From contig CAWILO010000004.1 in NCBI GenBank assembly GCA_963836955.1, forward strand, positions 152,916 through 216,915: a stretch of 64,000 nucleotides of DNA, given 5' to 3'. The position numbers and the translations under genes are program-made. Shown piece after piece: positions 23,352-59,676 of the stretch (position 1 is its first letter; each line of letters opens with the position of its first letter). Below the pieces are notes generated by a model, which was not told the origin of the DNA, did not search any database, and saw only the letters and a program-made list of their open reading frames with translations. The DNA is from an uncultured delta proteobacterium (GTDB lineage: Bacteria; Desulfobacterota; Binatia; Binatales; Binataceae).

Positions 23352-23354
23352 CGG

Positions 23355-31670: not shown

Positions 31671-31747
31671 TGGTCGGGGTGGCCGGATTTGAACCGGCGA
31701 CCACTCGCACCCCAAGCGAGTGCGCTACCAGTCTGCGCCACACCCCG
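31671..31747 (-). tRNA. tRNA-Pro (anticodon GGG)
   Basis: Minus-strand sequence CGGGGTGTGGCGCAGACTGGTAGCGCACTCGCTTGGGGTGCGAGTGGTCGCCGGTTCAAATCCGGCCACCCCGACCA. It has a 7-bp acceptor stem and an anticodon loop UUGGGGU (G37 typical of Pro). GTTCAAATCC T-loop and encoded CCA. Confidence 0.85.
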
Positions 31748-34170: not shown

Positions 34171-34173
34171 GTT

Positions 34174-35064: not shown

Positions 35065-35917
35065 CAAGGCGTGGGAGGATCGCGTTTTTGGCGCATCGCT
35101 CGCCGCGATGCTGCTGGTCCTGTCCTGTAGCGCGCTCGCGCTTGCGCAGTCTGCCGAAACCGCGGCGTCCGAGACCTGGAAGACAGCGGCCGCATCCGCA
35201 GCCGCGTCCGCTTCGAGCACGCGATCCGGCGCTGTCGTGCCCGTCGCGGAGGCCGCGCCTGTCACTGTTCCGGCGAACATGGTTCCGACTCCGCACGACA
35301 TGGACGCCTCTCAGCCAGGCGCCGCCGAGATTCAGCCACCCAATCCTGCCGATGCCTCGCAACAGCAGCCTCCCGGCACTGCCCCCGACGCGCAGCCGTC
35401 CGCGGACGGCAGCGAGGTCGCGCGTTATCAGGCGGAGCAGAGCGGGATGCCTCCTGAGCAGCTCAAGAGCCTCCAGCAGTTCGACAGCGAGGGCGAGCTT
35501 TCGACGCCCTTTGGAATGCAATTGCGCGAGGCGCGGCGCACGCTCAAGTCCGGCGAAGAGGCTGACGGCCTGCTGATCACGGCTGTCGAAAAAGGCAGTC
35601 CTGCCGCCAATGTGGGCCTGCACCCCTACACTCACGGTGTGCATGACGCGCTTACTGCGGCCGCGATGGTGGGTGCGGTCTTTTCCGGCGGGTTGGCAGT
35701 GGTGGTGATTCCGGCGATCGACTACATGCAGGTCGGCGAGAGCTACGACATGATCATCGGCGTCGACGGCTCGCGCGTAACCAACTTTCTCGACTACCAG
35801 GACCGCATGCGCGACCTCCAGCCGGGCGAGGTCATCTATCTAAGCGTCGTGCGCAACGGCAAGCGCATCCAGGTGACGATGCCAGTGCCGGCCAACGTCC
35901 TGCAAGCCACCAACTGA
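35039..35917 (+). CDS. secreted PDZ-domain protein
   Basis: Signal peptide. An Ala/Pro/Gln-rich linker. A C-terminal PDZ-like block (GLLITAVEKGSPAANVGL...IIGVDGSRV). Start overlaps the MBL gene end by 26 nt. Confidence 0.55.
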   Translation: MKSAGVLTSKAWEDRVFGASLAAMLLVLSCSALALAQSAETAASETWKTAAASAAASASSTRSGAVVPVAEAAPVTVPANMVPTPHDMDASQPGAAEIQPPNPADASQQQPPGTAPDAQPSADGSEVARYQAEQSGMPPEQLKSLQQFDSEGELSTPFGMQLREARRTLKSGEEADGLLITAVEKGSPAANVGLHPYTHGVHDALTAAAMVGAVFSGGLAVVVIPAIDYMQVGESYDMIIGVDGSRVTNFLDYQDRMRDLQPGEVIYLSVVRNGKRIQVTMPVPANVLQATN

Positions 35918-36233
35918 TCCATTCCTATTCCTCGCCCATTAGTTCACGGGATCGGTTAGGTGAGGGTTCTGCGGCATCCACCGCGATTTTCTCCTTTACG
36001 CGCTCGCCGACTTTCTCTATAAGTTGATTCGTCCGTCGAGGAAGACACTTCCCGGCGAGACGGTGTTGAGAGGACATTTGGTTTCGTTGTCTGCTCGCGC
36101 CTGGATCCGACAAGGACCGGGACTCCGAGTGATTCGAGCGCTCGTTCATTCGAGGATGCTCTGATGCGGGGTTGCCGGTAAGCGGCAGCCCCGATTTTTT
36201 TGGTGCGAGCAACTGAAGCGAGTGAGTGAGAAA

Positions 36234-37073
36234 ATGACGCAAGAAAAAGTTCGCGTGCCCGATCTCGCGCGCATGAAGGCCGCGCGGCAGCCAATCACGA
36301 TGCTGACCGCGTACGATTTCCCCTTCGCGAGGATCTTCGACATCTCCGGCGTCGACGTGCTCCTGGTCGGCGATAGTCTCGCGATGGCGGTGCGCGGCGA
36401 GGACAACACCCTAGCCGTCACAATCGACGAGGTCATCTACCACACCCGGATGGTCGCGCGGGCGCGCCGCCGTGCGATCCTCGTCGCCGATATGCCGTTC
36501 CTGTCGTACCAGGTGAGTCCCGAAGACGCGCTGCGCAACGCCGGCCGTCTCGTCAAGGAAGGCGGCGCCGAAGCGGTGAAGCTCGAAGGCGGCGTCGCGA
36601 TCGCAGACACAGTCGCGAGAATCTCGGCTGTCGATATTCCCGTGATGGGACACATCGGCTTGACGCCACAGTCGATTCATCGAATGGGCGGGCATCGCGT
36701 GCAAGGCCGAAAATCCGGCCGCGCCGCCGGATGCCGTGAGCGCCTGCTCGAAGATGCTGTCGCACTCGAAGCCGCAGGCGCATTCGCAATCGTCGTCGAG
36801 GGCGTGCCGCCGTCGTTGGCGCACGAGATAACTTCGCGTGTCGCGATTCCGACTATCGGCATCGGCGCCGGCCCCGGATGCGACGGGCAAGTGCTCGTGA
36901 TGCACGACATGCTCGGCCTCAACGAGTCGTTCGCGCCGCGCTTCGCGAAGCCGTTCGCGCATCTGTGGAGCGAGGCCGCGGCGGCAGCCACAGCCTACGT
37001 GCGCGAAGTGAAAGAGTGCGCGTTTCCCGCGCCGGAACACTGTTACGCCGAATCCGGGAGGGCCTCGCGATGA
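36234..37073 (+). CDS. panB: 3-methyl-2-oxobutanoate hydroxymethyltransferase
   Basis: ITMLTAYDF and LLVGDSLAM motifs. ATG at 36234 is preceded by the GAGTGAG SD. The GTG at 36222 is a less likely start. Confidence 0.9.
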   Translation: MTQEKVRVPDLARMKAARQPITMLTAYDFPFARIFDISGVDVLLVGDSLAMAVRGEDNTLAVTIDEVIYHTRMVARARRRAILVADMPFLSYQVSPEDALRNAGRLVKEGGAEAVKLEGGVAIADTVARISAVDIPVMGHIGLTPQSIHRMGGHRVQGRKSGRAAGCRERLLEDAVALEAAGAFAIVVEGVPPSLAHEITSRVAIPTIGIGAGPGCDGQVLVMHDMLGLNESFAPRFAKPFAHLWSEAAAAATAYVREVKECAFPAPEHCYAESGRASR

Positions 37074-37915
37074 TCGTAATTACCTCGCCGGACGAGATGA
37101 CTCGCTACTCCGAGTGCGCTCGCCTGAGCCGCGAGCGAATCGCGCTGGTGCCCACGATGGGCTATCTGCACGACGGACATCTGACGCTGATGCGCGAAGG
37201 CCGGCGTCAATCGTCAACCTTAGTAGCGTCCATCTTCGTCAATCCCACCCAGTTCGGCCCCGGCGAGGACTTCGCGAGCTATCCGCGCAACTTCGAGCGC
37301 GACTGCGCGATGCTCGAGACGGTGTCGGTGGACGTGGTCTTCGCGCCCGAGCCGACTGCGATGTACTCGCCCGACGCGCAGAGCTGGGTCGACGCCGGCG
37401 ACATCACGAGCGGACTCTGCGGAGCGCATCGCCCGGGACATTTCCGCGGCGTCACGACGGTCGTCGCCAAGCTGTTCAATATCGTCAAACCGCATCTGGC
37501 GGTTTTCGGCGAGAAGGATTTTCAGCAGTTGCGCGCGATCCAGAAGATGGTCCGTGATCTGAACTTCGACGTTGAAATTATGCCGGTGCCGATCGTGCGC
37601 GAGAAAGACGGTCTCGCGATGAGTTCGCGCAACGCTTACCTGTCGCCAACGGAGCGTGAAGACGCACTCGCGCTGAGCCTCGCAATCCGCGCGGCCCGCG
37701 AGAAACATCGCGCGGACCCATGCTGCGCCGAAGAAATAGTGTTCGCCGCAAGCCGAGTGCTCAAGCGGATGAAAGGCATCGAGATCGAATACGTAGAAGC
37801 GGTGGACGCCGAAACGCTAGCGCGTCATCCGTCGCTCGACCGCCCAATCCTGATCGCAATCGCAGCCCGCGTCGGCAAGACGCGACTTATCGATAATGTA
37901 GTGCTCAACCCGTAG
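37070..37915 (+). CDS. panC: pantoate--beta-alanine ligase
   Basis: VPTMGYLHDGHLTLM HIGH-type motif. Start overlaps the panB stop (ATGA). Confidence 0.9.
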   Translation: MIVITSPDEMTRYSECARLSRERIALVPTMGYLHDGHLTLMREGRRQSSTLVASIFVNPTQFGPGEDFASYPRNFERDCAMLETVSVDVVFAPEPTAMYSPDAQSWVDAGDITSGLCGAHRPGHFRGVTTVVAKLFNIVKPHLAVFGEKDFQQLRAIQKMVRDLNFDVEIMPVPIVREKDGLAMSSRNAYLSPTEREDALALSLAIRAAREKHRADPCCAEEIVFAASRVLKRMKGIEIEYVEAVDAETLARHPSLDRPILIAIAARVGKTRLIDNVVLNP

Positions 37916-38124: not shown

Positions 38125-38439
38125 CTAGGTCATCAGCAGAATCAAGAGGCCGCCGGTCACTATGAAGCCGCCGCCGAGCAGGATTCTGTCGTCGGGGACC
38201 TGCTTGAAGATAATCAGCGAAATCGTCTGCGACACTACGAAGAAGATCGCGATGTAGATTCCCATCAGGCGATTGAAATCGACGCCGCTTTGGTTGACCA
38301 GGATTCCGTAAGCGAACAGCGCGAACGCACCGGCTGCGAGCGAGTATCCGTAGCTGTGAAGTCCTATCCGGACGAGCGCATCGCCGCCGACCTCGAGCAG
38401 CGCGGCCAGCACCAGCACGGCGAGCGTCTTTAAGATCAA
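38125..38439 (-). CDS. small 4-TM membrane protein (SMR/EamA-like, ArnE/ArnF-like)
   Basis: 104 aa with four hydrophobic helices. Size and topology resemble the small multidrug resistance fold. Confidence 0.45.
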   Translation of the reverse strand: MILKTLAVLVLAALLEVGGDALVRIGLHSYGYSLAAGAFALFAYGILVNQSGVDFNRLMGIYIAIFFVVSQTISLIIFKQVPDDRILLGGGFIVTGGLLILLMT

Positions 38440-38458
38440 CGGCGGAGTCGCTTACGAC

Positions 38459-39790
38459 CTAATAGTAATCGACCGGATCGATCTGCCGCTTTGCGCCCCA
38501 GTAGAAGAGCATGTTCTCGGTCAGCCCCTGCCAGGTGAACTTACCCGGCGGCATCAGCAGCCGCTTGAACATCGACTTCAGCGAGTAGAACTCCTTCGTG
38601 CAACGCCACACGCCTTCCTCGACTTCCTGCGGCGACATATTCTTGGGCACGAACATGCAGCGGAAGTTGTTGGTATAGAGGTCGGCGTCGGGGATTATCA
38701 CGCGGCCCTCGTTCTCGAGTTGCGTGCGCATCGGCGTGCCGACGCGCGGCGTCACCGTGTTGAAGAAAGCCTCAGGCGCCTTGACCTCGTGCAGGAACTT
38801 CAGGGTGTCGTCGAAAATGCCCGGATGATCCTCTTCCAGCCCGAACAGGAAGTTGAGCGAGTAGTAAATCCCATATTTTTCGAGCTTCTTGAGCAGCTTC
38901 TTGTACTGCCCCGCGTGATTCTGAATCTTGTTCATCGACAGAAGGCTTTCCTGGCTGATCGATTCCACTCCGATATTGACGTGGAAAATTCCCGCCTTCG
39001 CCGCCAGCTCCAGCAAATCGTCGTCGTGATTCGAGTTGATCGTCCAGAGGCACGAGAAGCGGATGTTGAGCGGCTCCAGCGCCTTGAACAGCTCACGCGC
39101 AAACTTGTGCTTGCCGGTGATCTGATCGTCGATGAATTGAAAGCGCCTGAAGCCGGTAATCTTGACGACCTGTTTTATCTCCTCGACGATGTCCTCGATC
39201 GGGCGCGTCCGATACGCGCCGTCATAGAAGACCGGGATCTCGCAGAAGGAGCATCGATAAGGGCATCCGCGGCTCGCCTGCACCGGCACCGCCTTGAACA
39301 GGTAGCGATTGAGCTTGAGCAGCTCGTGGCGAGGGCGCGGCAGGTTCTTCAGGTCGTGCATCTTGTCGGCTTTGTAGATTTGCTTGAGCTTGCCGTCGCG
39401 CCAGTCCTGCAGCAGTTCGGGCCACACCAGGTCAGCCTCGCCCTGCACGACCGCATCGCAATGATGGAGAGCTTCTTCGGTCTGCAGCGTCGCATGGAAT
39501 CCGCCGAACACAACCGGGATACCGCGCTTGCGGAACTCGTCGCCGAGCTGGTACGCGCGCAGCGACGCGCCAATGGTGGTCGTCATGCCGACCAGGTCCC
39601 ATCCGCCGTCGAAATTGATTTCCTCGAGGCGCTCGTCACATAGCGTTACGTCGTAATCGTCCGGCGTCAGTCCTGCCATCAATGGAATCATCAGACCCAT
39701 GATCAGCCGCCAGCGCGTTTTATGCGGTGTGCCGTCGAGATGGACGGTGGTGGGTTGCACCAACAGGATACGTGGCTTCTTACCGTTCAT
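38459..39790 (-). CDS. B12-binding domain radical SAM protein (class B)
   Basis: N-terminal cobalamin-binding Rossmann-like region (ILLVQP...). Radical SAM cluster motif SRGCPYRCSFCE. 443 aa. Confidence 0.85.
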   Translation of the reverse strand: MNGKKPRILLVQPTTVHLDGTPHKTRWRLIMGLMIPLMAGLTPDDYDVTLCDERLEEINFDGGWDLVGMTTTIGASLRAYQLGDEFRKRGIPVVFGGFHATLQTEEALHHCDAVVQGEADLVWPELLQDWRDGKLKQIYKADKMHDLKNLPRPRHELLKLNRYLFKAVPVQASRGCPYRCSFCEIPVFYDGAYRTRPIEDIVEEIKQVVKITGFRRFQFIDDQITGKHKFARELFKALEPLNIRFSCLWTINSNHDDDLLELAAKAGIFHVNIGVESISQESLLSMNKIQNHAGQYKKLLKKLEKYGIYYSLNFLFGLEEDHPGIFDDTLKFLHEVKAPEAFFNTVTPRVGTPMRTQLENEGRVIIPDADLYTNNFRCMFVPKNMSPQEVEEGVWRCTKEFYSLKSMFKRLLMPPGKFTWQGLTENMLFYWGAKRQIDPVDYY

Positions 39791-39822
39791 ACTTCCTCCG
39801 CCTGCAGGCCTCGGTTCCCTTC

Positions 39823-41040
39823 CTACAGGCTTTCAGGTTCCATGGACGATTGGGTCCGGCCGGTAATCCAGATCAGGAGCAGCGCAAACACATAAGTACC
39901 GAACGCCGTCCCCCAAGCGAAGTACTCTAGCCGATTAATTAGAGCTAATACCACGAGTAAGTATGCGAAATCGCGGCCACTCCATCGATCGACCTTGTCC
40001 AGCCATGCGGCAGCCTGCGCGCCTTTCATTTTGAACGCCCGCCATGTGGCGTATGCACACATTGTGAATCCGCCGAGCAGGACAGGAATCAGGTACAGGT
40101 AGGCGCGGCTGTGATCGACCCGGTAGCATCCAACCAGCAGGCCGACGAACACTGCGGCGTGGACGATATTGTCAGTGAGCACGTCGAGCGCCCCACCGAA
40201 ATCGCTCTCGATCATTTTGAGCCGCGCGAGTTCGCCGTCGACGCCGTCGATCGTGATCGAGGTCAAAAAGAAAATCGCCGCGAACAGGCGCATCCAGTAG
40301 TTAGGCACAGCGAACATCCAGGCGCACGCCAGCCCGAATATCGTGTTGGCGACCGTGACCATGTTGGGTGTGACCCCGGTATGTGTGGCGAGCCAGTAGC
40401 TGATTCGCCACGAAATCCGCCGGTCGACCCATCGCGCCATCGGCGCATCTTTGTGCGCTGATTCCTCGCGAATTGTCTTCGCCAGCCGCAGTTCCGCTTC
40501 CTCGCGATCCTCGGGCCGTCCGTTCAGCGCGAAGGGCAGCAGGCTGGCGGAGGGCGCCGCAACGGTGGTCGAAATTCCCCCACGCTTGAGAATCTCGCCG
40601 ACGGGTCCGGTCGCGATTTCACCGCCACGGTCGCGATCGGTGCTGACGACCCGGTGTACTGACTGCGGGTTAGACGCGTGCGCGTCGAGGACCCGCGCCA
40701 GCTGCGATTTCGCGAATACCAGGTTCCCGGAGAAGGACACGCAAGGCGACGACGGGTCGATGCCTATTTCCTGCGCATTCCGATGATTCAGAATCTCACT
40801 GAACGATTCGACCATCGAAACCGTGTCGTAATTTTTGAACCGGCCCATCGCGCGAGCGACGTCCGGATATTGCTCGCGCGGCGCAGCCACGACAAACCGT
40901 TTGATCCCGGCGCGCTCGCAATTAATCATCAGCCGCTCTAACAGCGGGCGGCCGAAGACCGCATTATCCGCGCGGTCAGGTGCAGCGATTAGAGCAGTTT
41001 CAATCACCAACGTCTTCGTTAAACCTAGTCTTCCCCCCAA
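39823..41040 (-). CDS. fusion protein: N-terminal nucleotidyltransferase-like domain + C-terminal CDP-alcohol phosphatidyltransferase
   Basis: C-terminal half has a perfect CDP-OH transferase signature DGELAR-x8-G-x3-D-x3-D (DGELARLKMIESDFGGALDVLTD) in a multi-TM region. The N-terminal ~200 aa is a soluble NTP-transferase-like fold lacking a clean GxGxR motif. Confidence 0.75.
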   Translation of the reverse strand: MGGRLGLTKTLVIETALIAAPDRADNAVFGRPLLERLMINCERAGIKRFVVAAPREQYPDVARAMGRFKNYDTVSMVESFSEILNHRNAQEIGIDPSSPCVSFSGNLVFAKSQLARVLDAHASNPQSVHRVVSTDRDRGGEIATGPVGEILKRGGISTTVAAPSASLLPFALNGRPEDREEAELRLAKTIREESAHKDAPMARWVDRRISWRISYWLATHTGVTPNMVTVANTIFGLACAWMFAVPNYWMRLFAAIFFLTSITIDGVDGELARLKMIESDFGGALDVLTDNIVHAAVFVGLLVGCYRVDHSRAYLYLIPVLLGGFTMCAYATWRAFKMKGAQAAAWLDKVDRWSGRDFAYLLVVLALINRLEYFAWGTAFGTYVFALLLIWITGRTQSSMEPESL

Positions 41041-41285
41041 GCTCTCGTAGTCGGCGCCACGGTAACACAGCGGTAACGCCGATGGAAGTAGCCCTGCTAC
41101 TAGCTTCCAGCTCTAATTATGAGTTCGGCTTTCATCTGATGCCAGCCCTTGTCGAGTGGATCGTAAGGCGGAAAATCGGGTTCTCCAAGGTACATTGCCA
41201 AACAGCTCGCGCTATTTCCAATCGCCCACCTTAGTTGCAGCCGAAACTAGAGGATACCTATCGCGGCTGGTAAACTGACCATTTC

Positions 41286-42026
41286 ATGGGCACCATTACC
41301 GCCTTGCTATTCGATTTCGGCGGCACGCTCGACGGGCCGGCGCATTGGCTCGACCGTTTCCTCTTGAGCTACCGCGCTGCCGGGGTCGAAATATCACGCG
41401 CCGAACTCGACCCGGCGTTCGATCATGCGACCCGTATCGGCTACGGCGCGACGCGGGTCGTGGCGCGGTTCGGGATGACGGACCTGGTGCGATTCCTCGT
41501 CGGCCATCAATTCGAATATCTCCAAAAAAGCGGGCCGGAGGCGCTCCGCAAGGTACTCGAGGATTCCGGCGCCGCCGGACGCCATCGCTTCGTCGAAGAC
41601 GTGACAAAATCGTTCGTCCGTGAGACATCGGCTGGCCTGGCGCATAGCCGCGACGTCATCGGCTCTCTCAAGAGCCGCTTCAAGCTGGGAATCGTTTCGA
41701 ACTTTTATGGAAATCTGGACCGGATCCTCGAAGAGGCGAGGCTGGATCGATTCTTCGCGGCAGTTGCTGATTCATCGCGCGTCGGAATCTTCAAACCCGA
41801 GCTGGGCATCTTCGCAGCCGCTTTAAGAAAACTTAATTGTGCACCCGAATCGGCTGCGATGATTGGAGACTCTCTCGCGAAGGATTGCGTGCCCGCACAT
41901 GAGCTCGGGATGCGGACCGTTTGGCTGCGCACCGAGTCGCAACGCGGCGACGATGCTTCCGGGGCGCACGCCGCCGCCGATATCACGATCCGAACGATCG
42001 ACGAAGTTGCGCAAATTCAATGGTGA
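41286..42026 (+). CDS. HAD-superfamily hydrolase (subfamily IA-like phosphatase)
   Basis: LLFDFGGTL motif I at the N-terminus and downstream HAD motifs (GIVSN, GD). 246 aa. Confidence 0.8.
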   Translation: MGTITALLFDFGGTLDGPAHWLDRFLLSYRAAGVEISRAELDPAFDHATRIGYGATRVVARFGMTDLVRFLVGHQFEYLQKSGPEALRKVLEDSGAAGRHRFVEDVTKSFVRETSAGLAHSRDVIGSLKSRFKLGIVSNFYGNLDRILEEARLDRFFAAVADSSRVGIFKPELGIFAAALRKLNCAPESAAMIGDSLAKDCVPAHELGMRTVWLRTESQRGDDASGAHAAADITIRTIDEVAQIQW

Positions 42027-42751
42027 CGAGATTGCAAGGAGCAATTATTGCCGCGGGCCGTGGCGACCGGCTGCGCGTCTCGACGCGCGACGACATTCCC
42101 AAGCCGCTCGTCATGCTCGGCGGTGAGGCGATGCTCTCGCGGCAGGCGCGCGCACTGATCGACGCGGGCGCGTCGTCAGTTGTCGCGGTGATCAACTCCG
42201 AGACGGCGCGCGTCGCGAGTGAGAACCAAATTGCGCTCGAGGTTCCGTCGTCGGTCCGGCTCGTGGTTCGCGACACCGCCAACTCGATGGAAACGATGCT
42301 GGCGCTTGGTGACGAGTTAGCATCAGGATGGTTTATAGCGTCGACGGTCGACGCTGTAATTCCACAGGCGGAATTGGCGCGTTTTGTTAATGAGTCGCGA
42401 CGGAAAATCGAGGATTGTGGCGACAAAAAACTAGTCGGTGTGCTGGCTGTCACAAAATGGCGCGGTGAAGCCAAGCCGCTTTTCGCCGATGTAACAGAGA
42501 ACGGGTTGATCCTGCGCCTCGGCAACCGTCAGACTTCTATGGTGACGGCAGGACTCTATTTCCTGTCGACCCGAATTTTCGACTTCGCCGCCGACGCGCG
42601 CCGCGCGGGACTCGATGCGCTCCGACGCTTTCTTGGACTGATTATCGAACGCGGGATGCGGCTGGATGCGATCGAGGTCGAAGGATCAATTGATGTGGAT
42701 GAGGCGGAGGACCTCGACGCCGCGCGCCTCGCAACACGGAAGATGCCATGA
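42019..42751 (+). CDS. sugar/alcohol-phosphate nucleotidyltransferase (NTP_transferase fold)
   Basis: MVTRLQGAIIAAGRGDRLR...PKPL matches the G-x-G-x-R-L nucleotide-binding signature. Start overlaps the HAD stop by 8 nt. Confidence 0.7.
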
Positions 42752-43569
42752 GCTATAGAGCTTTGGGAATTTATCGGGAACCCGAGTTTTCACCGGGCAA
42801 GGTCGAGGCTGACGCCGCGATTCTCGACGCCACCTTGTCTGAACTCAAGCGCGAGGGTGTCGAGATCCAGACGATCGATGCGGTCAGTTTCGCAGTGGCT
42901 CTGCCCGTTCGCGCCGATCTCGTGCTGCCGATGTGCCAAGGGCCGCGCGCGCTCAAGCGGCTGGCTGAAATCGAGCAGGCGGGGGCTATAGCGATGAACT
43001 CCGCGCTCTCGATTCGCAATTGCTACCGCGATTTGCTCGCGCCCGGTCTCGAGCGCGCCGGAGTGCCCACACCGCCGGGCGTGCTGGTCGCGACAGACGT
43101 GCCGCTCGATACGCGCAAGCTTGCCGCGCTGGATTTATCGGCGGGTGTGTTCGTCAAGCGCGGCGACTTGCACGCACTCGCGCCTGAAGACGTTCAGCGG
43201 GCGGCCGATCGTGCGGAGATCGAGTCGATCCTCGCCGATTTCGCGCGCCGCGGAATCCGCTTCGCCTACATGCAGCAGGAAGTCGTTGGACGGGTCGTGA
43301 AATTTTACGGCGTCAGCGGCGGTACGCATTTCAGCGTGCATCCGGAGGACGAGGAAGTCGCCGAAGCCGCTGTGCGCGCGCTGTCGGAGGCGGCAACCGC
43401 TGCGGCCGGTGCGCTCGGCCTCGAGGCGTGGGGCGGAGACGCGGTCTTGAGTGGCGATCGTTTTGCGATTATCGATTTTAACGACTGGCCCAGTTACAGC
43501 CGGGTGCGCGGACCTGCCGCGCGTGCGATCGCACGCCGCGCGATGAGTCTGCTTGGCCGCCCGCGCTAG
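42748..43569 (+). CDS. ATP-grasp domain protein
   Basis: C-terminal GGDAVLSGDRFAIIDFNDWP resembles the ATP-grasp Mg/ATP site (E/D-x-N). 273 aa. Translationally coupled to neighbours. Confidence 0.55.
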   Translation: MSYRALGIYREPEFSPGKVEADAAILDATLSELKREGVEIQTIDAVSFAVALPVRADLVLPMCQGPRALKRLAEIEQAGAIAMNSALSIRNCYRDLLAPGLERAGVPTPPGVLVATDVPLDTRKLAALDLSAGVFVKRGDLHALAPEDVQRAADRAEIESILADFARRGIRFAYMQQEVVGRVVKFYGVSGGTHFSVHPEDEEVAEAAVRALSEAATAAAGALGLEAWGGDAVLSGDRFAIIDFNDWPSYSRVRGPAARAIARRAMSLLGRPR

Positions 43570-44977
43570 AATCGCGCCGGAAATTCAAATAAGGATTCGG
43601 ACCGCCAATCAATTGAAGACAACTACCAACGGAAAACTTCCGGCAATCAGGACCGCCGTTCCTGGACCCAAGTCGAAGGAGATCTTCGACCTCGAACAAA
43701 AATATATCGCCCCGGGCCGTCAGCGAATCTCGCTGCTCGCCGGCCTCGCGTTCGATCACGGCGAAGGCGCGACTCTTACCGACGCCGACGGCAACACTTA
43801 CGTAGATTTTTTCGCGGGCGTCGCAGTCGCAAGCCTCGGTCATGCGCATCCTGGCATGGCGCAGGCGCTGTCGAACCAGGCGTCGCGGCTGATGGTCGGC
43901 ACCTTCGCCACCAAAGAGCGCGCGGCCGCGTTCAAGGCGCTGGCTGAAGTCGCGCCCGCCGGCCTGACTCGGGCACATCTATATAGCGGCGGTGCGGAGG
44001 CAGTCGAAGCTGCCTTGCGGCTCGCGCGCTCTGCTACTGGAAAGCATGAGGCCGTGAGCTTCTGGGGCGGCTTCCACGGCAAGACCGGTGGCGTTCTAGG
44101 ACTGATCGGCGACGAATCGAAGCAAGGCTACGGACCGTTGCAGGGCGGACAGTACACAGTTCCATACGCGGACTGCTACCGATGCCCGTTCAAGTTGAAG
44201 TATCCCGACTGCGGGCTGTACTGCGTCGATTTCGCGCGCCAGCAAATCAAGATGAGCTCCAGCGGCGCGCTCGCTGCGATTGTCGCCGAGCCGATGCAAG
44301 GCACGGCCGGCAACGTGATCCCGCCCGACGACTGGCTGCCCGCGGTTAAATCCGTCGCCAAGGATTTCGGCGCGATGCTGATAGCCGACGAAATGATCAC
44401 CGGCTTCGGACGGACCGGAAAATGGTGGGGCGTCGAGCATAGCGGCGTCCGTCCCGATATCGTCACCGTCGGCAAGGGGATGGGCTCCGGATTTCCTGTT
44501 TCGGGGGTGCTGCTAAGCGACGAACTGGGCAAAGCGGAGCCGTTCTCGAAGCCGAGTGCGTCGTCGTCGAGCTACGGCGGAAATCCGCTGGCGGCGGTGG
44601 CGGTGGCGGAAACGATCGGCGCGATTCAGCGACAGCACCTGGTCGAAAACTCGCGCAAGGTCGGCGCAAGGATGCTGTCGAAGCTGACTCAGCTCAAAGA
44701 AAAATACGAGTTTATCGGCGACGTCCGCGGCAAAGGGTTGCTGATTGGCGTCGAGCTCGTACGCGATCTCGAAACCAAGGAACTGCTCGGCAAGAAAGTC
44801 ACCGAGCTGATCTTCGCCGAATGCCTCAAGCGCGGACTCGTCATCATGGGCTACTTCCCCAAGATTCGAATCAACCCCGCGCTGGTTATCACCGAAGCGC
44901 AGGCCGAGGCCGGCGTCGAGATAATGGACGAAGTGTTCGCGCATGTCCGCGACCACGTTGACTGGCAGCACGCGTAA
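43553..44977 (+). CDS. class III pyridoxal-phosphate-dependent aminotransferase
   Basis: Fold I AT-III blocks (YSGGAEAVEAALRLAR, ADEMITGFGRTGKWWG, VTVGKGMGSGFP with PLP-Lys). Start uncertain: TTG at 43553 or later. Confidence 0.85.
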   Translation: MAARARIAPEIQIRIRTANQLKTTTNGKLPAIRTAVPGPKSKEIFDLEQKYIAPGRQRISLLAGLAFDHGEGATLTDADGNTYVDFFAGVAVASLGHAHPGMAQALSNQASRLMVGTFATKERAAAFKALAEVAPAGLTRAHLYSGGAEAVEAALRLARSATGKHEAVSFWGGFHGKTGGVLGLIGDESKQGYGPLQGGQYTVPYADCYRCPFKLKYPDCGLYCVDFARQQIKMSSSGALAAIVAEPMQGTAGNVIPPDDWLPAVKSVAKDFGAMLIADEMITGFGRTGKWWGVEHSGVRPDIVTVGKGMGSGFPVSGVLLSDELGKAEPFSKPSASSSSYGGNPLAAVAVAETIGAIQRQHLVENSRKVGARMLSKLTQLKEKYEFIGDVRGKGLLIGVELVRDLETKELLGKKVTELIFAECLKRGLVIMGYFPKIRINPALVITEAQAEAGVEIMDEVFAHVRDHVDWQHA

Positions 44978-44992
44978 GCGAAATCTTTTTCG

Positions 44993-45469
44993 ATGGCCAA
45001 CCCGAACGGCAACGCGGCGCTGTTCTTCGATTTGGGCGGTACCCTCGTCAAACTCAACGACGAGCGCGAGATTCCGCTCGACGCAAACGGCAACATTGTA
45101 GTCGAACTGCTTCCGGGCGTGACGGAAAAGCTTCGCCCCCTGCATAACCATCTGATGTTCGTCGTGACCAACCAGGCGGGGATCACGCGCGGACGGCTGA
45201 CGGCGGAAAAAGTCGAGGCGGCTCTTCGGCAGCTCGACCATCAGCTCGGCGACATCCTCACCGCGTGGCAAGTCTGCCCGCATACCGACGACGACAAATG
45301 CGAATGCCGCAAACCCAAGGGCGGAATGATCGCAGAGCTAGCCGACCAGTACGGAGTGGACCTGGCATCGTCAACGATGGTCGGCGATCAGGAAGTCGAC
45401 AGGCTCGCAGGCGAAGCTGCAGGCGTCGCGAAGTTCGTCGCAGCCGAGGACTTCTTCGGCTGGAAGTAG
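44993..45469 (+). CDS. HAD-IIIA phosphatase, GmhB / histidinol-phosphatase-like
   Basis: FFDLGGTL motif I. Zinc-finger-like CPHTDDDKCECRKPK insert characteristic of GmhB-type D,D-heptose bisphosphate phosphatases. Confidence 0.75.
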   Translation: MANPNGNAALFFDLGGTLVKLNDEREIPLDANGNIVVELLPGVTEKLRPLHNHLMFVVTNQAGITRGRLTAEKVEAALRQLDHQLGDILTAWQVCPHTDDDKCECRKPKGGMIAELADQYGVDLASSTMVGDQEVDRLAGEAAGVAKFVAAEDFFGWK

Positions 45470-45690: not shown

Positions 45691-45806
45691 GAGGCTCCAG
45701 ATGCAAGTGTGCAACGTGCGTCGTCTTTTCGTTTCGTCCTTCCTTTGTCTGTCGTCTTTTTTTTGTGTCATTCTGAGCGCAGCGAATGAGCGAGGAGAAA
45801 ACAAAA

Positions 45807-46658
45807 ATGAAAATCGGATTGCTTACCCCCTTCACTGGCAAAAATGCGCATCCCGGAGAATTTGCTCGAGTCGCCGAGTCTCTCGGCTTCGAATCCATTT
45901 GGGTGCCCGAGCATCCCGCGATGCCCGCCAATCCCAAGCAGCAGTTTCCCACCGGCGGTCCGATTCCGCCCGCGTACTTCACGATGGCCGATCAGATGAT
46001 CGCGCTCGCGATGGCCGCCGCCACTACCAAGAATCTCAAACTCGCCACCGGCATCTGCCTCGTCCCGGAGCATGAGCCGCTCACTCTCGCCAAACAGTTC
46101 GCGACTCTGGACGCATACTCGGGCGGCCGTGTGCTGTTCGGGATTGGCGCGGGATGGTTGCGCGAGGAGAGCGATCTGTTCGGCGTCGATTTTCCCCATC
46201 GATGGACCGAGACTGCCGAGATAGTCTCCGCGATGCGCAAGCTGTGGACCGAGGACCAGGCATCGTTCGAGGGCAAGTACGTAAAGTTCCCGCCAGTGAA
46301 ATCGCTGCCGAAACCCGCGCAGAAATCGGGACCGCCCGTGCTGATCGGCAGCCTCGACAAGAACGCGCTCAAGCGCGTGGCGAAGTGGGCCGACGGATGG
46401 TGTCCTATCGCACTCAACGCCTCGCAGTTGAAGACGCGGGTCGATGAGCTCAAGCGCGAGTGCCAGGCGGTCGGCAGGAACTTCTCGGAATTGGACATCA
46501 CGATCATGGGCGGAATCCGCGGCGATCGCGCAACTGTGCAGGCCGGGCTCAAGGAATTTGCGGAAGCAGGAGCGGGTCGATTCGTCGCAGGGCTGGGAGA
46601 TCTAACGTTCGAGAGCTCAGAGGGAACGCTGAAGAAGATCGCCGCGCTGTACGTTTAG
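45807..46658 (+). CDS. LLM-class (luciferase-like) flavin/F420-dependent oxidoreductase
   Basis: GAGGAG SD 9 nt upstream of ATG (MKIGLLTPF...). Conserved TIM-barrel LLM blocks (ESIWVPEH, LGIGAGW). Confidence 0.8.
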   Translation: MKIGLLTPFTGKNAHPGEFARVAESLGFESIWVPEHPAMPANPKQQFPTGGPIPPAYFTMADQMIALAMAAATTKNLKLATGICLVPEHEPLTLAKQFATLDAYSGGRVLFGIGAGWLREESDLFGVDFPHRWTETAEIVSAMRKLWTEDQASFEGKYVKFPPVKSLPKPAQKSGPPVLIGSLDKNALKRVAKWADGWCPIALNASQLKTRVDELKRECQAVGRNFSELDITIMGGIRGDRATVQAGLKEFAEAGAGRFVAGLGDLTFESSEGTLKKIAALYV

Positions 46659-47198: not shown

Positions 47199-48230
47199 AT
47201 GGCTGGTCGAACGAAACTACGAGGCACTATTTCCGGGTTTGGCGAGGTTGCTGCCCGGGCCCATCTGCCCGGATGGCGCACGCGCGACGGCGTTGCCATC
47301 GGCGCTATCCACGATCCTGTTTCTGAGCGGCGTCACGAAGCTATTCGGTTGATCAAGAATGTTCGCGTCTATGACGACCTCGAGTTGATGCTTGACGGTG
47401 AGGCTCCCGATTTTGTGGATGTAGCGAGTCCGCCGGGGTTCCATCATGAGGCCGCACGCCTGGCGCTTGAAGCGGGCGCGCACGTCTTGGTCGAGAAGCC
47501 GCTCGCGCTTTCGCTTGGCGAGTTCGATAGGCTTGCAGGCTTGGCCGCCGAGAAACGACGGGTCTTGATGTGCGTGCACAATTGGAAGTACGCACCGGCG
47601 TACGCGGCTACGCGCAAGGCGATCGAGGCCGGCAGGCTCGGCCCAATTCGCTTCATGTCGATCGACCGGTTGCGGACAGAGCCTGCGGGCGCTGGAGGAA
47701 GCGGTGGCAAGTGGCGCGCATCAGCGGCGTCGGGTGGCGGGATTCTGATCGATCACGGATGGCACGTTTTCTACCTGATGAACTGGCTGCTTGGAGGTGA
47801 TTCGCCGGTGTCGATATCGGCACGGCTCGAGTCGCCGGCCGGCGTCGACGTCGACGACGTGGCCGAGGTGCGAATCAGGTTCGCGAACGGATCGCTCTCT
47901 CGGGCACATCTTTCGTGGCGGGCGCCGGTGCGCAGAACTTCGGCGCTCATCTATGGAGAGCGGGCGTGTATCGAAATTGAAGGTGATCGGATGACGATTA
48001 CGGATCGCGCCGGGAAGGTTGAGGACCTGTCGCTCGCGGATGCAGCCGACGATTCATACCATTCGACATGGTTCGCCGGCGTTGCGGAAGAGTTCGAGCG
48101 AGCGGTCACCGAAGGAACCGATTCGCCCGTTGCAAGGCGCAATCTGGCCGAGGCGCGGGTCGCGCTCATGCTAATCGACGCAGCACGGAAATCGTCTATC
48201 AACAACGGCGTAGAGATATATCTCCCGTAA
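47199..48230 (+). CDS. Gfo/Idh/MocA family oxidoreductase
   Basis: N-terminal Rossmann fold (GFGEVA), EKPLA motif and C-terminal alpha/beta domain. Confidence 0.8.
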   Translation: MAGRTKLRGTISGFGEVAARAHLPGWRTRDGVAIGAIHDPVSERRHEAIRLIKNVRVYDDLELMLDGEAPDFVDVASPPGFHHEAARLALEAGAHVLVEKPLALSLGEFDRLAGLAAEKRRVLMCVHNWKYAPAYAATRKAIEAGRLGPIRFMSIDRLRTEPAGAGGSGGKWRASAASGGGILIDHGWHVFYLMNWLLGGDSPVSISARLESPAGVDVDDVAEVRIRFANGSLSRAHLSWRAPVRRTSALIYGERACIEIEGDRMTITDRAGKVEDLSLADAADDSYHSTWFAGVAEEFERAVTEGTDSPVARRNLAEARVALMLIDAARKSSINNGVEIYLP

Positions 48231-50189: not shown

Positions 50190-50238
50190 TGAATCGCAAG
50201 CGCGGTCGAAGCGGAGCGCGCTCGCGCGCGGCTAGCCC

Positions 50239-52244: not shown

Positions 52245-52309
52245 TCAGGTTGCGGCGAAGTTGTGGCGGTTCCCGCGGGATGCGGGCTGAGTCGAGACAG
52301 GGGTGAAAT

Positions 52310-54268: not shown

Positions 54269-54278
54269 GCAGGTCGCT

Positions 54279-55448: not shown

Positions 55449-55452
55449 GACG

Positions 55453-57283: not shown

Positions 57284-57284
57284 A

Positions 57285-58649: not shown

Positions 58650-58664
58650 CTACTTGCTAATCGA

Positions 58665-59669: not shown

Positions 59670-59676
59670 GCCCGCG

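Follow-up and report, generated by a model that had tools for sequence, protein, structure and literature searches.

A Binataceae version of a widespread CDP-alcohol cassette and its putative inositol-derived head group

The gene cassette described here lies within a 64,000-nucleotide stretch of DNA (the window) from the soil bacterium Candidatus Binatus. It is read, with moderate confidence, as the Binataceae version of a widespread cassette that would convert a CDP-activated cyclitol into a phosphodiester-linked, inositol-derived polar head group, and as belonging to the branch of that cassette in which the ring would also be aminated. Judged from sequence, an inosamine-type phospholipid head group is the best candidate for the product, and the locus would represent an undescribed variant of an inositol-lipid pathway that is known from gut Bacteroides and is itself still unproven. 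From the computed gene content, folds, motifs, linkage, fusions and homology to a cluster of Phocaeicola vulgatus we infer the substrates, the order of reactions and the product. A first-pass annotation of the window had described an uncharacterised CDP-alcohol cassette with a product that could not be predicted. The cassette is indeed uncharacterised and conserved, but it is not an isolated oddity, as homology links its core to the P. vulgatus cluster, and its product appears more predictable than claimed, being probably inositol-derived.

Gene order and the core module

All eight open reading frames (ORFs) that had been assigned to the cassette were recovered where they had been placed. The two gene blocks, previously taken to converge, are in fact divergent, with minus-strand genes to the left and plus-strand genes to the right of a 245-bp intergenic region (41041-41285). 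Divergent promoters are presumed to lie in this region, in which a single promoter-like match was found (minus strand, 41145-41116), a count not above chance expectation, and for which an Rfam search gave no match. The HAD and nucleotidyltransferase (NTase) genes overlap by 7 nt and the NTase and ATP-grasp genes by 4 nt; start overlaps of 4 to 17 nt had been reported, and the upper figure applies only if the aminotransferase begins at a TTG at 43553, the called start being 43628. The span first proposed (38125-45469) is too short, since a conserved member, a GFO/IDH/MocA oxidoreductase (47199-48230), falls outside it. Synteny of the gene set holds within the genus and throughout Binataceae, and in many phyla the core genes remain linked; the grouping is far beyond chance.

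The gene at 39823-41040 (minus strand) encodes a two-domain membrane enzyme, the C-terminal half of which is a six-helix CDP-alcohol phosphotransferase (CDP-OH_P_transf by Pfam and NCBIfam). Its signature is intact (D265x2D268G269x2A272R273x8G282x3D286x3D290) and invariant in 25 homologues. The N-terminal ~200 residues have the NTase fold, as had been suggested, but not the NTase signature, with neither GxGxR(L) nor PKPL present. An IPCT/DIPPS-like architecture is borne out by profile, PDB and whole-fold matches: the whole chain best matches the structure of IPCT-DIPPS (4mnd; E 9.4e-10, 452 columns), followed by AF2299, and NCBIfam scores are 74 bits for DIPPS, 50 for PIPS, 29 for PssA and 28.5 for PgsA. 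Against PDB sequences AF2299 reaches 56 bits (E 2.4e-14) and PssA 12 bits; assignment to PgsA or PssA was rejected on these weaker scores. The transferase is present in 24 of 24 genomes of the genus (65-88% identity), and its public gene call (368 aa) omits a conserved N-terminal strand. AF2299 and DIPP synthase, the closest solved relatives, are non-lipid-processing enzymes, a point against the lipid reading, and soluble acceptors have been associated with their six-helix architecture (PMC4634129).

On the plus strand, the NTase (42020-42751; 243 aa; PF12804, PF00483) carries the expected GxGxRL...PKPL signature in intact form (GRGDRL...PKPL), which is kept in about 70 cassette homologues, and it is presumed to be a CTP:cyclitol-phosphate cytidylyltransferase. 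The preceding plus-strand gene (41286-42026) encodes a HAD-IA-type protein (Pfam, NCBIfam) of 246 aa with motif I D-F-G-G-T-L-D and CTE7/REG-2-like NCBIfam matches below the cut-offs. This protein belongs to the core of the cassette in all lineages. Of 86 loci, 80 have D[FY]GGT[LI]D as motif I, and Asp+2 is replaced by Gly in 85 and by Cys in one. A second HAD, the HAD-IIIA protein (44993-45469, plus strand; 158 aa; motif I D-L-G-G-T), scores 88.5 bits against TIGR01656 (cut-off 84.15) and is histidinol-phosphatase/GmhB-like by HMM. It is a Binataceae-specific addition, present at every one of the 13 Binataceae loci whose flanks are complete and at none of 38 loci elsewhere. Both proteins had been labelled phosphatases. 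Their HAD membership stands, but both carry DxGGT and lack the second catalytic Asp (Asp+2), the general acid/base present in canonical phosphatases such as GmhB, so that a simple phosphatase role is uncertain; this too weighs against the main reading.

The ATP-grasp enzyme (42748-43569, plus strand; 273 aa; signature [IV]DxNDWPSF) is encoded by the gene that marks the cassette. A Pfam search of this ORF gave no match, there is no Pfam model for the family, and matches among family members are weak and mixed (ATPgrasp_ST in 19 of 67, Ins134_P3_kin in 13 of 67, RimK in 10 of 67). Its identity, proposed earlier, is confirmed by the predicted fold (pLDDT 95.8), and the nearest structures are carboxylate-amine ligases (RimK, Z 22.5; LysX/ArgX, Z 21.9; Ddl, Z about 20), which is an observation against the main reading; ITPK structures are absent among the 50 best structural matches. 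The C-terminal motif aligns to DLNYLPSF of ITPK4 (profile E 3.7e-7), and profile matches to the ligases PsnB (2.3e-7) and RimK (2.6e-5) are as good. The metal-site motif of ligases is E-x-N, unlike the D-x-N-x-x-P-S-F of this family, which resembles that of ITPK. The enzyme is most likely a kinase, with a carboxylate ligase as the alternative. NTase-ATP-grasp fusions occur in six database proteins (P0136, P0139, P0200, P0223, P0254, P0263) and at locus L066, a HAD-NTase-ATP-grasp fusion in P0161 and an ATP-grasp-CDP-OH transferase fusion in P0239, and a HAD-transferase fusion has been reported (PMC9246714). These natural fusions indicate that the NTase, HAD, ATP-grasp enzyme and transferase constitute one module.

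Distribution and associated genes

The ATP-grasp family is found in about 495 of 36,145 genera, spread over 27 phyla. Grouped by likeness band, 30 of 75, 168 of 198, 9 of 15 and 9 of 9 carriers have a CDP-OH transferase within 6 kb, compared with fewer than 3 at random places. Linkage to the neighbouring genes is kept across phyla, so that the refutation test set by the first-pass annotation does not overturn its proposal. Two cassette types can be recognized: a Bacteroidia type (NTase, ATP-grasp, transferase and HAD by a gene for myo-inositol-1-phosphate synthase, MIPS) and a type with an aminotransferase and an IolG-like dehydrogenase, the latter in at least seven other phyla, Binatia included. 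The order HAD-NTase-ATP-grasp-aminotransferase-GFO-transferase is colinear in four other Binatia families, Syntrophobacteraceae, Elusimicrobiota, Verrucomicrobiota, Gemmatimonadota and Myxococcota.

The class-III (PLP) aminotransferase (43553-44977, plus strand; 449 aa from the called start) was correctly named (PF00202, 315 bits); its cassette orthologs share 47-63% identity across phyla, and same-genome paralogs 34% or less. The nearest named relative of the NAD-dependent GFO/IDH/MocA oxidoreductase (plus strand; family assigned by Pfam) is IolG, inositol 2-dehydrogenase, at 72 bits, far below the cut-off of 355, which counts against the main reading. UDP-GlcNAc 3-dehydrogenase, levoglucosan dehydrogenase and other GFO enzymes score similarly; IolG is also the best NCBIfam match of the Ignavibacteria and Syntrophobacteraceae orthologs (three phyla). 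In further Binatia families and in other phyla the GFO gene comes immediately after that for the aminotransferase, and a single-copy ortholog is present in 38 of 41 Binataceae genomes. The two genes strictly co-occur (both in 15 loci, one alone in none, neither in 23). With the aminotransferase always accompanied by this dehydrogenase, an aminated head group, as suggested earlier, would be the most economical reading.

A search for MIPS, which the first-pass annotation had recommended, located the gene in the genome, outside the locus. Among 151 sampled Binatia genomes MIPS was detected in 52 of 57 ATP-grasp carriers versus 35 of 94 non-carriers; of the five carriers without it, completeness is only 65% in one genome and 89% in two. 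The distance from MIPS to the ATP-grasp gene is 10 kb or less in 21 of 75 and 90 of 198 carriers of the two lower likeness bands (fewer than 3 at random). As a point against the main reading, it is rarely adjacent in aminotransferase-type loci (2 of 15 outside Binataceae) and never in Binataceae (0 of 15 and 0 of 9). Among aminotransferase-type genomes of other phyla without adjacent MIPS, 8 of 10 have it elsewhere, and the aminotransferase-type cassettes of Ignavibacteria, Bacteroidota, Bdellovibrionota and Binatia families f9 and f13 include it or have it within about 10 kb. Operons of the Ignavibacteria type unite ATP-grasp, aminotransferase, transferase, GFO, flippase-like gene, HAD and MIPS, the last being their sole carbon-skeleton-making enzyme; no other such enzyme is conserved in the cassettes.

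Genes for LPG_synthase_TM (MprF flippase-type) proteins occur inside cassettes of Bacteroidia, Ignavibacteria, Syntrophobacteraceae and Binatia, directly after the transferase in Syntrophobacteraceae (L037) and in f9 and f13 (L104, L105), and MlaEFD lipid-transport genes lie inside one Ignavibacteria cassette. The flippase-like genes in many cassettes point to a lipid product; no such gene was found in the Binataceae loci, an observation on the opposite side.

The radical SAM protein with a B12-binding domain (38459-39790, minus strand; 443 aa; CxxxCxxC at C176/C180/C183; PF04055 68.7 and PF02310 31.1 bits) had been identified correctly, as Pfam and NCBIfam confirm. It reaches no NCBIfam equivalog (BchE 103, PhpK 87, HpnJ 79 bits), and its PDB matches are weak (9ccb, an uncharacterised radical SAM protein, 3.7e-10; AprD4, 1.6e-9; CysS, 2e-5). 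Orthologs with 82-98% identity occur in 17 of 17 sampled Binataceae, the best match outside being 44% or less, and of the 13 Binataceae loci whose flanks are complete, 12 have the gene beside that of the transferase; it is a Binataceae-specific ortholog, probably with a tailoring role. An F420-dependent luciferase-like (LLM) oxidoreductase (45786-46658, plus strand; TIGR03619, 243 bits), a homologue of which follows the HAD-IIIA gene at several Binataceae loci, is a possible accessory gene; the same genome yields 64 tblastn matches to it. The small hydrophobic ORF at 38125-38439 (minus strand; 104 aa), once labelled SMR-like, is instead weakly YnfA/UPF0060-like (PF02694, 22.6 bits, below the 24.9 cut-off). 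Matches by tblastn were found only after the radical SAM gene in two loci of the same genus (L014, L015) and in no other Binataceae locus, and its membership of the cassette is doubtful.

A hopanoid locus does lie 3.7 kb away, with an HpnH-like gene, squalene-hopene cyclase, HpnC/D/E-like genes and others, and its nearness, with the side-chain tailoring by HpnO- and HpnJ-type enzymes, had been cited in favour of a role in membrane-lipid head-group or compatible-solute chemistry. By the same analogy the cassette could tailor hopanoid side chains. The same arrangement recurs in the genus and, beyond it, at L016, L029 and L030, three of about 18 other Binataceae loci, but hpn genes are absent within 10 kb at most other Binataceae loci and at all non-Binataceae cassettes. 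The radical SAM protein is far below the cut-offs for HpnJ (79 versus 577.6 bits) and HpnR (49 versus 650), and the aminotransferase orthologs follow the ATP-grasp/CDP-OH cassette, not hpn genes; a role in hopanoid tailoring is therefore very improbable.

Proposed route and alternative readings

In the proposed route, MIPS encoded elsewhere in the genome would supply inositol phosphate, the IolG-like dehydrogenase would oxidize one ring CHOH to a ketone, which the aminotransferase would turn into an amine, so that an inosamine results. The ATP-grasp enzyme, non-canonical HAD and NTase may act as one module delivering a CDP-cyclitol, with the presumptive kinase taking part in a relay that would shift phosphate from the MIPS-installed position to the activated one. 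A kinase/phosphatase/NTase relay of this kind is known from ADP-heptose synthesis. The phosphodiester would then be made by the DIPPS/AF2299-type transferase, with a membrane lipid as the most likely acceptor, and in Binataceae the B12-radical-SAM protein, the HAD-IIIA protein and perhaps the F420-dependent oxidoreductase may tailor the head group, one possible tailoring being C-methylation, as by GenD1.

Several readings differ from this route at individual steps. The ATP-grasp enzyme could instead be a ligase that couples the amine or hydroxyl of the ring to a carboxylate, for instance an amino acid, to give an acylated or aminoacylated head group, as the structural and profile matches to ligases would allow and as an amine supplied by the aminotransferase would suit. 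This is possible though unlikely: the gene is equally conserved in Bacteroidia cassettes without aminotransferase, the ITPK-like motif departs from that of ligases, and the repeated fusions with the NTase suit a kinase feeding it. Moreover, the plain PI-dihydroceramide reported from bacteria with the Bacteroidia-type cassette (PMC9246714) leaves no room for an added acyl group and fits a mass-neutral phosphorylation/dephosphorylation cycle. Somewhat less likely still is a soluble product, a phosphodiester serving as compatible solute like di-myo-inositol phosphate or diglycerol phosphate with an aminated cyclitol, in which the DIPPS/AF2299-type enzyme would join the CDP-cyclitol made by the NTase to a second soluble alcohol phosphate and a HAD protein would take off the phosphate that is left. 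The set of NTase, CDP-OH transferase and phosphatase matches the logic of DIP synthesis exactly, the Binataceae loci have no flippase-like gene, and the transferase is nearest AF2299 and IPCT-DIPPS in sequence and whole fold, sharing with these non-lipid enzymes a cytidylyltransferase-like N-terminal domain and the six-helix core (PMC4634129). However, the same transferase type is followed by LPG_synthase_TM in L037, L104 and L105, Mla genes accompany the Ignavibacteria cassette, and the cassette is carried by mesophiles of soil and gut rather than by hyperthermophiles. Use of lipid acceptors is, moreover, known for six-helix CDP-OH enzymes such as actinobacterial ClsA.

In the aminotransferase-type cassettes the activated alcohol could also derive from a sugar or polyol other than inositol, acted on by the dehydrogenase, aminotransferase and kinase/NTase module. 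The scarcity of adjacent MIPS, its absence from five Binatia carriers and the comparable scores of other dehydrogenases on the GFO protein fit this idea, which is nevertheless improbable given the enrichment of MIPS among carriers, its place in or near aminotransferase-type cassettes of several lineages, the lack of any other conserved carbon-skeleton enzyme and the NCBIfam proximity of the transferase to inositol-phosphate-using enzymes.

Comparison with known systems

A putative "alternative inositol-lipid cluster" of P. vulgatus has been published, with its role unproven, and an inositol sphingolipid is made by P. vulgatus and P. veroralis, carriers of a related cluster (PMC9246714), which argues against a soluble product. 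The locus found in P. vulgatus ATCC 8482 (L064) comprises NTase, ATP-grasp, CDP-OH transferase, LPG_synthase_TM, HAD, MFS, one minus-strand ORF and MIPS, an order consistent with the published locus tags of that cluster. Its proteins share 28% (NTase), 36% (ATP-grasp) and 29% (HAD; E 6e-24) identity with those of the window. The Bacteroidia cassette lacks an aminotransferase and has MIPS adjacent, whereas the Binataceae cassette has the aminotransferase and GFO genes, with MIPS elsewhere. For this combination with a B12-radical-SAM protein a precedent exists in GenD2, GenS2 and GenD1, a dehydrogenase, a transaminase and a B12-radical-SAM methylase that act on one ring (PMC4340712).

Gene layout of the cassette

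The cassette lies in a genome of 5.6 Mb that is 96% complete (window at C4:152916-216915, C4 being contig CAWILO010000004.1). Public records name Candidatus Binatus or Binataceae for close homologues of the window proteins, and the listed sequencing runs all consist of DNA from soil metagenomes, with none of RNA. The ORF map resolves it into two gene blocks that diverge from a 245-bp gap at 41041-41285, and not into converging blocks as the first-pass annotation had it. The minus strand carries a CDP-alcohol transferase (405-aa ORF, 39823-41040), a radical SAM protein with a putative B12-binding domain (443 aa, 38459-39790) and a 104-aa hydrophobic YnfA-like ORF that is confined to the genus (38125-38439). 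The plus strand carries a HAD protein (41286-42026), a nucleotidyltransferase (NTase, 42020-42751), a 273-aa protein with an ATP-grasp fold (42748-43569), a class-III aminotransferase (43553 or 43628 to 44977) and a HAD-IIIA protein (44993-45469). Gene overlaps of 4 to 17 nt had been claimed for this block; those of 4 nt (NTase and 273-aa protein) and 7 nt (HAD and NTase) are present, whereas the overlap of 17 nt requires a TTG start at 43553. An oxidoreductase of the GFO/IDH/MocA type (GFO, 47199-48230), which is the partner of the aminotransferase in the form of the cassette referred to below as Type B, lies beyond the region originally assigned to the cassette.

Promoter and terminator scans of the cassette gave counts that are not above shuffled expectation, and an Rfam scan found no family in or near it, in particular no cobalamin riboswitch. 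Elsewhere in the window the same database recognizes a TPP riboswitch (RF00059, 77.6 bits, 23353-23457, plus strand) and a tRNA gene (RF00005, 65 bits, 31674-31747, minus strand). An F420-dependent LLM oxidoreductase gene (45786-46658) adjoins the cassette; it has 64 tblastn matches across the genome, so that this family appears to be greatly expanded in the source organism.

Proteins of the cassette

The CDP-alcohol signature of the transferase (Dx2DGx2ARx8Gx3Dx3D, D265 to D290) is complete, as had been noticed from the sequence at the outset, and invariant in 25 homologues. The protein scores 51.3 bits against PF01066 (cut-off 22), and its predicted model consists of a juxtamembrane helix followed by six transmembrane helices. 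Among NCBIfam models the highest score is that for DIPPS, the enzyme of di-myo-inositol-phosphate synthesis (74 bits), ahead of archaetidylinositol-phosphate synthase (54), PIP synthase (50), PssA (29) and PgsA (28.5). The best sequence match among solved structures is AF2299 (56 bits, E 2.4e-14), and the predicted whole chain is best matched by the IPCT-DIPPS structure 4mnd (E 9.4e-10, 452 columns). The first 200 residues adopt an NTase fold, in which the sequence ALI(A/S)AP.R..N.IFGRPLLERL recurs in all homologues; taken alone, this domain matches the structures of IspD, RmlA, KdsB and TarI (E about 5e-4 to 2e-3). The IPCT/DIPPS architecture that had been proposed is thus upheld as regards the N-terminal cytidylyltransferase fold, but the DIPPS equivalog NF041135 is not reached (74 bits against a cut-off of 580, with a match limited to residues 195-384, profile positions 224-407, of the C-terminal half). 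In addition, the fused domain lacks the GxGxR(L) loop and the PKPL lysine, whereas every stand-alone cassette NTase keeps GxGxRL...PKPL, in agreement with the separate nucleotidyltransferase of the first-pass annotation. Because this signature is missing, the N-terminal domain of the transferase is, judged from its sequence, probably not catalytic. The public gene call of the transferase (368 aa, start at M38) drops a conserved N-terminal strand that holds the invariant residues A16, I18, R31, E35 and R36; the called length of most homologues is 394 to 396 aa.

Both HAD proteins (41286-42026 and 44993-45469) have a motif I of the form DxGGT and lack the Asp+2 that serves as general acid/base in canonical HAD phosphatases. 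In the first of these the Asp+2 is replaced in 86 of 86 loci, in every phylum examined (Gly in 85, Cys in 1), and motif I reads D[FY]GGT[LI]D in 80 of the 86, with a conserved Asp at +6. The HAD-IIIA protein has FFDLGGTL and its orthologs DL[GA]GT, in place of the canonical DxDGT. Two HAD phosphatases, one of them of the GmhB type, had been proposed: membership of the HAD family stands, and the HAD-IIIA protein passes the TIGR01656 domain model (88.5 against 84.15), but the GmhB equivalog is missed (87.3 against 178) and, with Asp+2 missing in both proteins, the phosphatase label is provisional. The DxGGT motif suggests a non-canonical HAD activity. The PDB matches of the HAD protein (uncharacterised archaeal HADs) and of the aminotransferase (GABA-AT-like proteins and racemases) give no clue to the substrate. 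The best named relative of the GFO oxidoreductase is IolG (TIGR04380, 72 bits against a cut-off of 355), as it is for the Ignavibacteria and Syntrophobacteraceae orthologs. Its best PDB match is 6nor, which may be GenD2 and is not used as evidence.

The 273-aa protein has no match in Pfam or NCBIfam, and the best E value in a single-sequence PDB search was only about 0.4. Prediction from an alignment with 67 relatives yields a complete ATP-grasp fold (pLDDT 95.8); its three domains and its ATP-grasp structural matches bear out the earlier assignment. Conserved in the family are K137, K185, D243 and N245, in keeping with the Lys and the D/E-x-N metal site of ATP-grasp enzymes. Foldseek places the model nearest to D-Ala-D-Ala ligases and LysX/ArgX (TM 0.7-0.75), and a second structural aligner nearest to RimK (Z 22.5, 251 residues aligned, rmsd 3.1) and LysX/ArgX (Z 21.9); the 50 best structural matches by Z comprise RimK, LysX, CPS, Ddl and PurK/PurT, with no ITPK among these 50. 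The family profile, searched against the PDB, finds the PsnB ligase (2.3e-7), ITPK4 (3.7e-7, across the C-terminal third only), RimK (2.6e-5) and ITPK1 (about 1e-4), and the family signature [IV]DxNDWPSF aligns with the DLNYLPSF motif of ITPK4. Against the ITPK-type Pfam model PF05770 the protein stays below the cut-off (12.1 bits against 23), with weak matches in 13 of the 67 family members; the 67 as a whole match mixed ATP-grasp families weakly, by which a kinase and a ligase are not separable.

We favour a kinase over a ligase on three grounds. The protein is equally conserved in the cassettes termed Type A below, the reported product of which, a plain phosphoinositol ceramide, allows only mass-neutral steps; it is recurrently fused to the NTase and to HAD-NTase; and its metal-site motif resembles that of ITPK. 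The ligase-like structure, close to RimK and LysX, and the odd HAD motif call for caution over a kinase relay.

The radical SAM protein matches PF04055 (68.7 bits, with C176x3C180x2C183) and falls just under the cut-off for PF02310 (31.1 bits against 32.1). It approached no NCBIfam equivalog, and its PDB matches are weak (AprD4 1.6e-9, CysS 2e-5). Orthologs of 82-98% identity are present in 17 of 17 sampled Binataceae, and in the other Binatia families nothing exceeds 44%. Across the fetched Binataceae loci (L016-L033) its mean identity to the window protein is 90.6%, that of its cassette neighbours 48-78%. HpnH, a hopanoid protein, is 79-87% identical in three loci. The constraint on the radical SAM protein is thus unusually strong.

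Distribution and forms of the cassette

The cassette is best recognized by its ATP-grasp protein. Among the representatives of clusters at 50% identity 882 are related to it, and the family is present in about 495 of 36,145 genera and in 27 phyla, the main carriers being Bacteroidia, Ignavibacteria, Binatia, Elusimicrobia, Methylomirabilia and Gemmatimonadetes. Divided by likeness band, 30/75, 168/198, 9/15 and 9/9 carriers have a CDP-alcohol transferase gene within 6 kb of the ATP-grasp gene, and 21/75, 90/198, 0/15 and 0/9 have a gene for myo-inositol-1-phosphate synthase (MIPS) within 10 kb; fewer than 3 are found at random in either case. Natural fusions join the same genes: NTase to ATP-grasp in six database proteins and in one fetched locus (L066), HAD to NTase to ATP-grasp (P0161), ATP-grasp to CDP-alcohol transferase (P0239) and, as reported by Heaver et al. 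(PMC9246714), HAD to transferase. From this recurrent linkage and these fusions it follows that HAD, NTase, ATP-grasp and transferase form one functional module. An apparent fusion of ATP-grasp with aminotransferase in locus L077 was rejected as an open upstream frame, since the two genes do not share a reading frame and a stop lies at 5956.

Eighty loci were fetched with the family profile and set against the window proteins, and a maximum-likelihood tree of the ATP-grasp protein was computed. Two forms of the cassette can be recognized. Type A, found in Bacteroidia (Sphingobacterium, Dyadobacter, Phocaeicola, Prevotellaceae and Muribaculaceae), consists of NTase, ATP-grasp, CDP-alcohol transferase, LPG_synthase_TM (an MprF flippase-type gene) and HAD; MIPS is usually nearby and there is no aminotransferase. 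Type B adds the class-III aminotransferase and the GFO oxidoreductase, which outside Binataceae occur together in 15 loci, singly in none, and are both absent from 23. Here the genes are colinear in the order HAD-NTase-ATP-grasp-aminotransferase-GFO-transferase, often followed by the flippase-like gene, in four other Binatia families, Syntrophobacteraceae (including the cultured Desulfoferrobacter suflitae), Elusimicrobiota, Verrucomicrobiota, Gemmatimonadota and Myxococcota. In the non-Bacteroidota clade of the tree 40 of 44 rows are Type B, and the window cassette is of this type. Conservation of the gene neighbourhood, which the first-pass annotation had put forward as a check, is therefore clear: the linkage of ATP-grasp with transferase recurs far above random, and aminotransferase and GFO are colinear across phyla.

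The Binataceae form departs from this order: its transferase gene is now on the opposite strand, with the B12-radical-SAM gene behind it, and the oxidoreductase is displaced downstream. The HAD-IIIA gene has been added (13 of 13 loci, against 0 of 38 elsewhere), and an F420-type LLM oxidoreductase is often next. Of 41 Binataceae genomes, 38 have a single-copy GFO ortholog, including those in which the gene has moved to another contig. Other lineages have tailoring genes of their own directly upstream in Type B cassettes (L037 6529-8499; L038 7088-8548; L105 5435-6913): a distinct B12-radical-SAM gene of 486-492 aa and about 25% identity occurs in the cassette neighbourhoods of some Syntrophobacteraceae, among them D. 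suflitae, and of another Binatia family (f13), and in one Syntrophobacteraceae MAG its place is taken by genes for a sulfotransferase and an O-methyltransferase. The simplest reading of this variation is lineage-specific tailoring of a common head group.

A search of the genome for MIPS, also called for at the outset, found the gene on contig C2, flanked by Mrp/ParA-type and CoaBC genes and unlinked to the cassette on C4. MIPS is within 10 kb of the cassette in 0 of 24 close relatives, and in Ignavibacteria-type operons it stands in the same gene string. Among 151 sampled Binatia genomes the ATP-grasp gene is present in 57 and MIPS in 87; MIPS accompanies 52 of the 57 carriers and 35 of the 94 non-carriers, a contrast that is indicative and not a statistical test, since the sampled genomes are related. 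Among the five carriers without MIPS, genome completeness is 65% in one and 89% in two. Type B genomes of other phyla in which MIPS is not adjacent have it elsewhere in 8 of 10 cases. Pantothenate and CoA genes lie beside both loci, CoaX, panB and panC just left of the cassette (33400-37915) and CoaBC directly after MIPS (C2:240750-242000), which is probably a coincidence.

Proposed product and known systems

To the right of the cassette is a hopanoid-type (hpn) locus (49185-60576), with a TetR gene at 48440-49150. It encodes an HpnH-like radical SAM protein with DUF3463, a polyprenyl synthase, a Zn-ADH, a squalene-hopene cyclase (52310-54268), Dxr, two SQS_PSY (squalene/phytoene-synthase) proteins, an amine-oxidase-type FAD enzyme, an NAD epimerase and a carotenoid-synthesis-like protein. 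The locus is real, as was first noted, but its adjacency to the cassette is limited to the genus and three other Binataceae loci and never extends outside the family; we see no evidence of the functional tie that had been held plausible. The radical SAM protein scores 79.4 bits against HpnJ (cut-off 577.6) and 49.4 against HpnR (cut-off 650). With these cut-offs missed and the linkage not conserved, a role in hopanoid tailoring was rejected.

As for the product itself, a lipid is considered probable. Cassettes of Bacteroidia, Ignavibacteria, Syntrophobacteraceae and Binatia contain LPG_synthase_TM genes, one Ignavibacteria cassette contains MlaEFD genes, and bacteria with the Type A cluster make inositol sphingolipid (PMC9246714). 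These observations weigh against a soluble product, which is the less likely reading, albeit one with arguments of its own: AF2299 and DIPP synthase, the closest solved relatives of the transferase, process no lipids, and the six-helix architecture has been connected with soluble acceptors (PMC4634129). The Binataceae locus, moreover, has no flippase-like gene. The source genome does encode, on contig C10, an ortholog (45% identity) of the flippase-like protein of the Syntrophobacteraceae cassette, and its gene adjoins a second two-domain CDP-alcohol transferase, a radical SAM gene and lptFG. At this site (C10:12800-16200; L101 3856-7118) LptF, LptG, a 339-aa radical SAM protein and a 424-aa transferase (PF01066 at 236-330) are encoded, with LPG_synthase_TM convergent. 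The Binatia locus L102 has the same transferase/flippase pair, at a distance of 3.5 kb from its cassette.

A pathway can be outlined in which MIPS would supply inositol phosphate, and the IolG-like dehydrogenase and the aminotransferase, by analogy with GenD2/GenS2, would turn one ring CHOH into CH-NH2. The ATP-grasp protein, HAD and NTase may deliver a CDP-activated cyclitol, from which the transferase would form the phosphodiester. Such a kinase/phosphatase/NTase relay would shift the phosphate away from where MIPS places it and onto the position that is activated; in ADP-heptose synthesis the phosphate is moved by a relay of this kind. Taken together, these considerations lead to a tentative proposal, to which as a whole we give somewhat less than even chances. 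It holds that at least seven phyla (Binatia/Desulfobacterota, Thermodesulfobacteriota, Elusimicrobiota, Verrucomicrobiota, Gemmatimonadota, Myxococcota and Ignavibacteriota) may make a new class of membrane phospholipid with an inosamine-phosphate head group by means of HAD, NTase, ATP-grasp, aminotransferase, IolG-like dehydrogenase, CDP-alcohol transferase and flippase; that the ATP-grasp protein may be a new cyclitol-phosphate kinase as well as the missing core enzyme of the alternative pathway of Bacteroides; and that the B12-radical-SAM protein of Binataceae may modify the ring further.

If true, a cationic or zwitterionic inositol-type lipid is predicted in abundant, mostly uncultured lineages of soil and sediment, and a concrete seven-gene target becomes available for lipidomics and heterologous expression. 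An ATP-grasp family that has no Pfam model would likewise be identified as core to the alternative inositol-lipid pathway of gut Bacteroidota (Phocaeicola, Prevotella, Muribaculaceae, Sphingobacterium). Testable hypotheses concern the positioning of the phosphate in a Kennedy-type inositol pathway, the role of the HAD subfamily that lacks Asp+2, and a DIPPS-like enzyme in mesophiles. CDP-alcohol routes to inositol phosphodiesters are already known, and a related Bacteroidetes cluster has been proposed as putative. A literature search found no description of the ATP-grasp family as a core cassette member, of the aminotransferase/dehydrogenase variant over at least seven phyla, or of the Binataceae form with its own radical SAM protein, and nothing relevant on an inosamine-containing phospholipid or in later work on CDP-inositol and the alternative pathway.

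The nearest known system is that cluster, described by Heaver et al. for Phocaeicola vulgatus and Prevotella (PMC9246714). Compared with the locus of P. vulgatus ATCC 8482 (L064), the window proteins are 28% (NTase, E 3e-22), 29% (HAD, 6e-24) and 36% (ATP-grasp, 2e-43) identical, and common to both are the D[FY]GGT HAD motif, a PF01066 transferase and dependence on MIPS; LPG_synthase_TM is a partner in cassettes related to that of the window. The order of genes in L064 is exactly that of Type A and fits the published locus tags (NTase BVU_RS13095, transferase RS13105, HAD RS13115). Only these three genes are named for the cluster in that study, which mentions neither the ATP-grasp gene between them nor any aminotransferase and states that the alternative pathway is unconfirmed (PMC9246714). 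In contrast to the window cassette, the Bacteroidia form has no aminotransferase, GFO dehydrogenase or radical SAM gene, its transferase is of another subtype (about 316 aa, with Dx4D spacing and lacking the N-terminal domain), and MIPS is adjacent to it, not unlinked.

With IPCT/DIPPS and AF2299 of Archaeoglobus fulgidus the window transferase shares a two-domain design, in which a cytosolic domain of cytidylyltransferase fold is joined to a six-helix transferase with an intact signature. It differs from them in that its N-terminal domain lacks the NTase signature and an intact NTase is supplied by a gene of its own nearby. The host is a mesophile; the cassette adds aminotransferase, dehydrogenase, ATP-grasp and radical SAM genes, and related cassettes have flippase-like genes. 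The PIP-synthase route (Mycobacterium PgsA1; B. thetaiotaomicron BT_1523/BT_1525/BT_1526) likewise starts from MIPS, employs a transferase of the inositol-phosphate clade and ends in a dephosphorylation, and an LPG_synthase_TM gene of the BT_1521 type lies nearby, as in the cassettes. However, its substrate is CDP-diacylglycerol and it works without a soluble NTase, ATP-grasp, dehydrogenase or aminotransferase, and its models give the window transferase 50 bits against a cut-off of 170. The donor pocket of PIP synthase is a hydrophobic groove, that of AF2299 is polar.

The relays of HldE-GmhB (ADP-heptose) and LicA/LicC (CDP-choline) combine a phosphotransfer enzyme, a HAD protein and an NTase, clustered and sometimes fused, to provide an activated alcohol for a transferase. 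The putative kinase of the cassette differs from these in its ATP-grasp fold, and the HAD protein in its lack of Asp+2. In gentamicin biosynthesis the NAD oxidoreductase GenD2 and the transaminase GenS2 turn a secondary alcohol of the ring into an amine, after which the cobalamin radical SAM enzyme GenD1 methylates the ring (PMC4340712). The resemblance of the Binataceae cassette to this system would be one of reaction logic alone, the gentamicin substrate being an aminoglycoside and not a phosphodiester head group.
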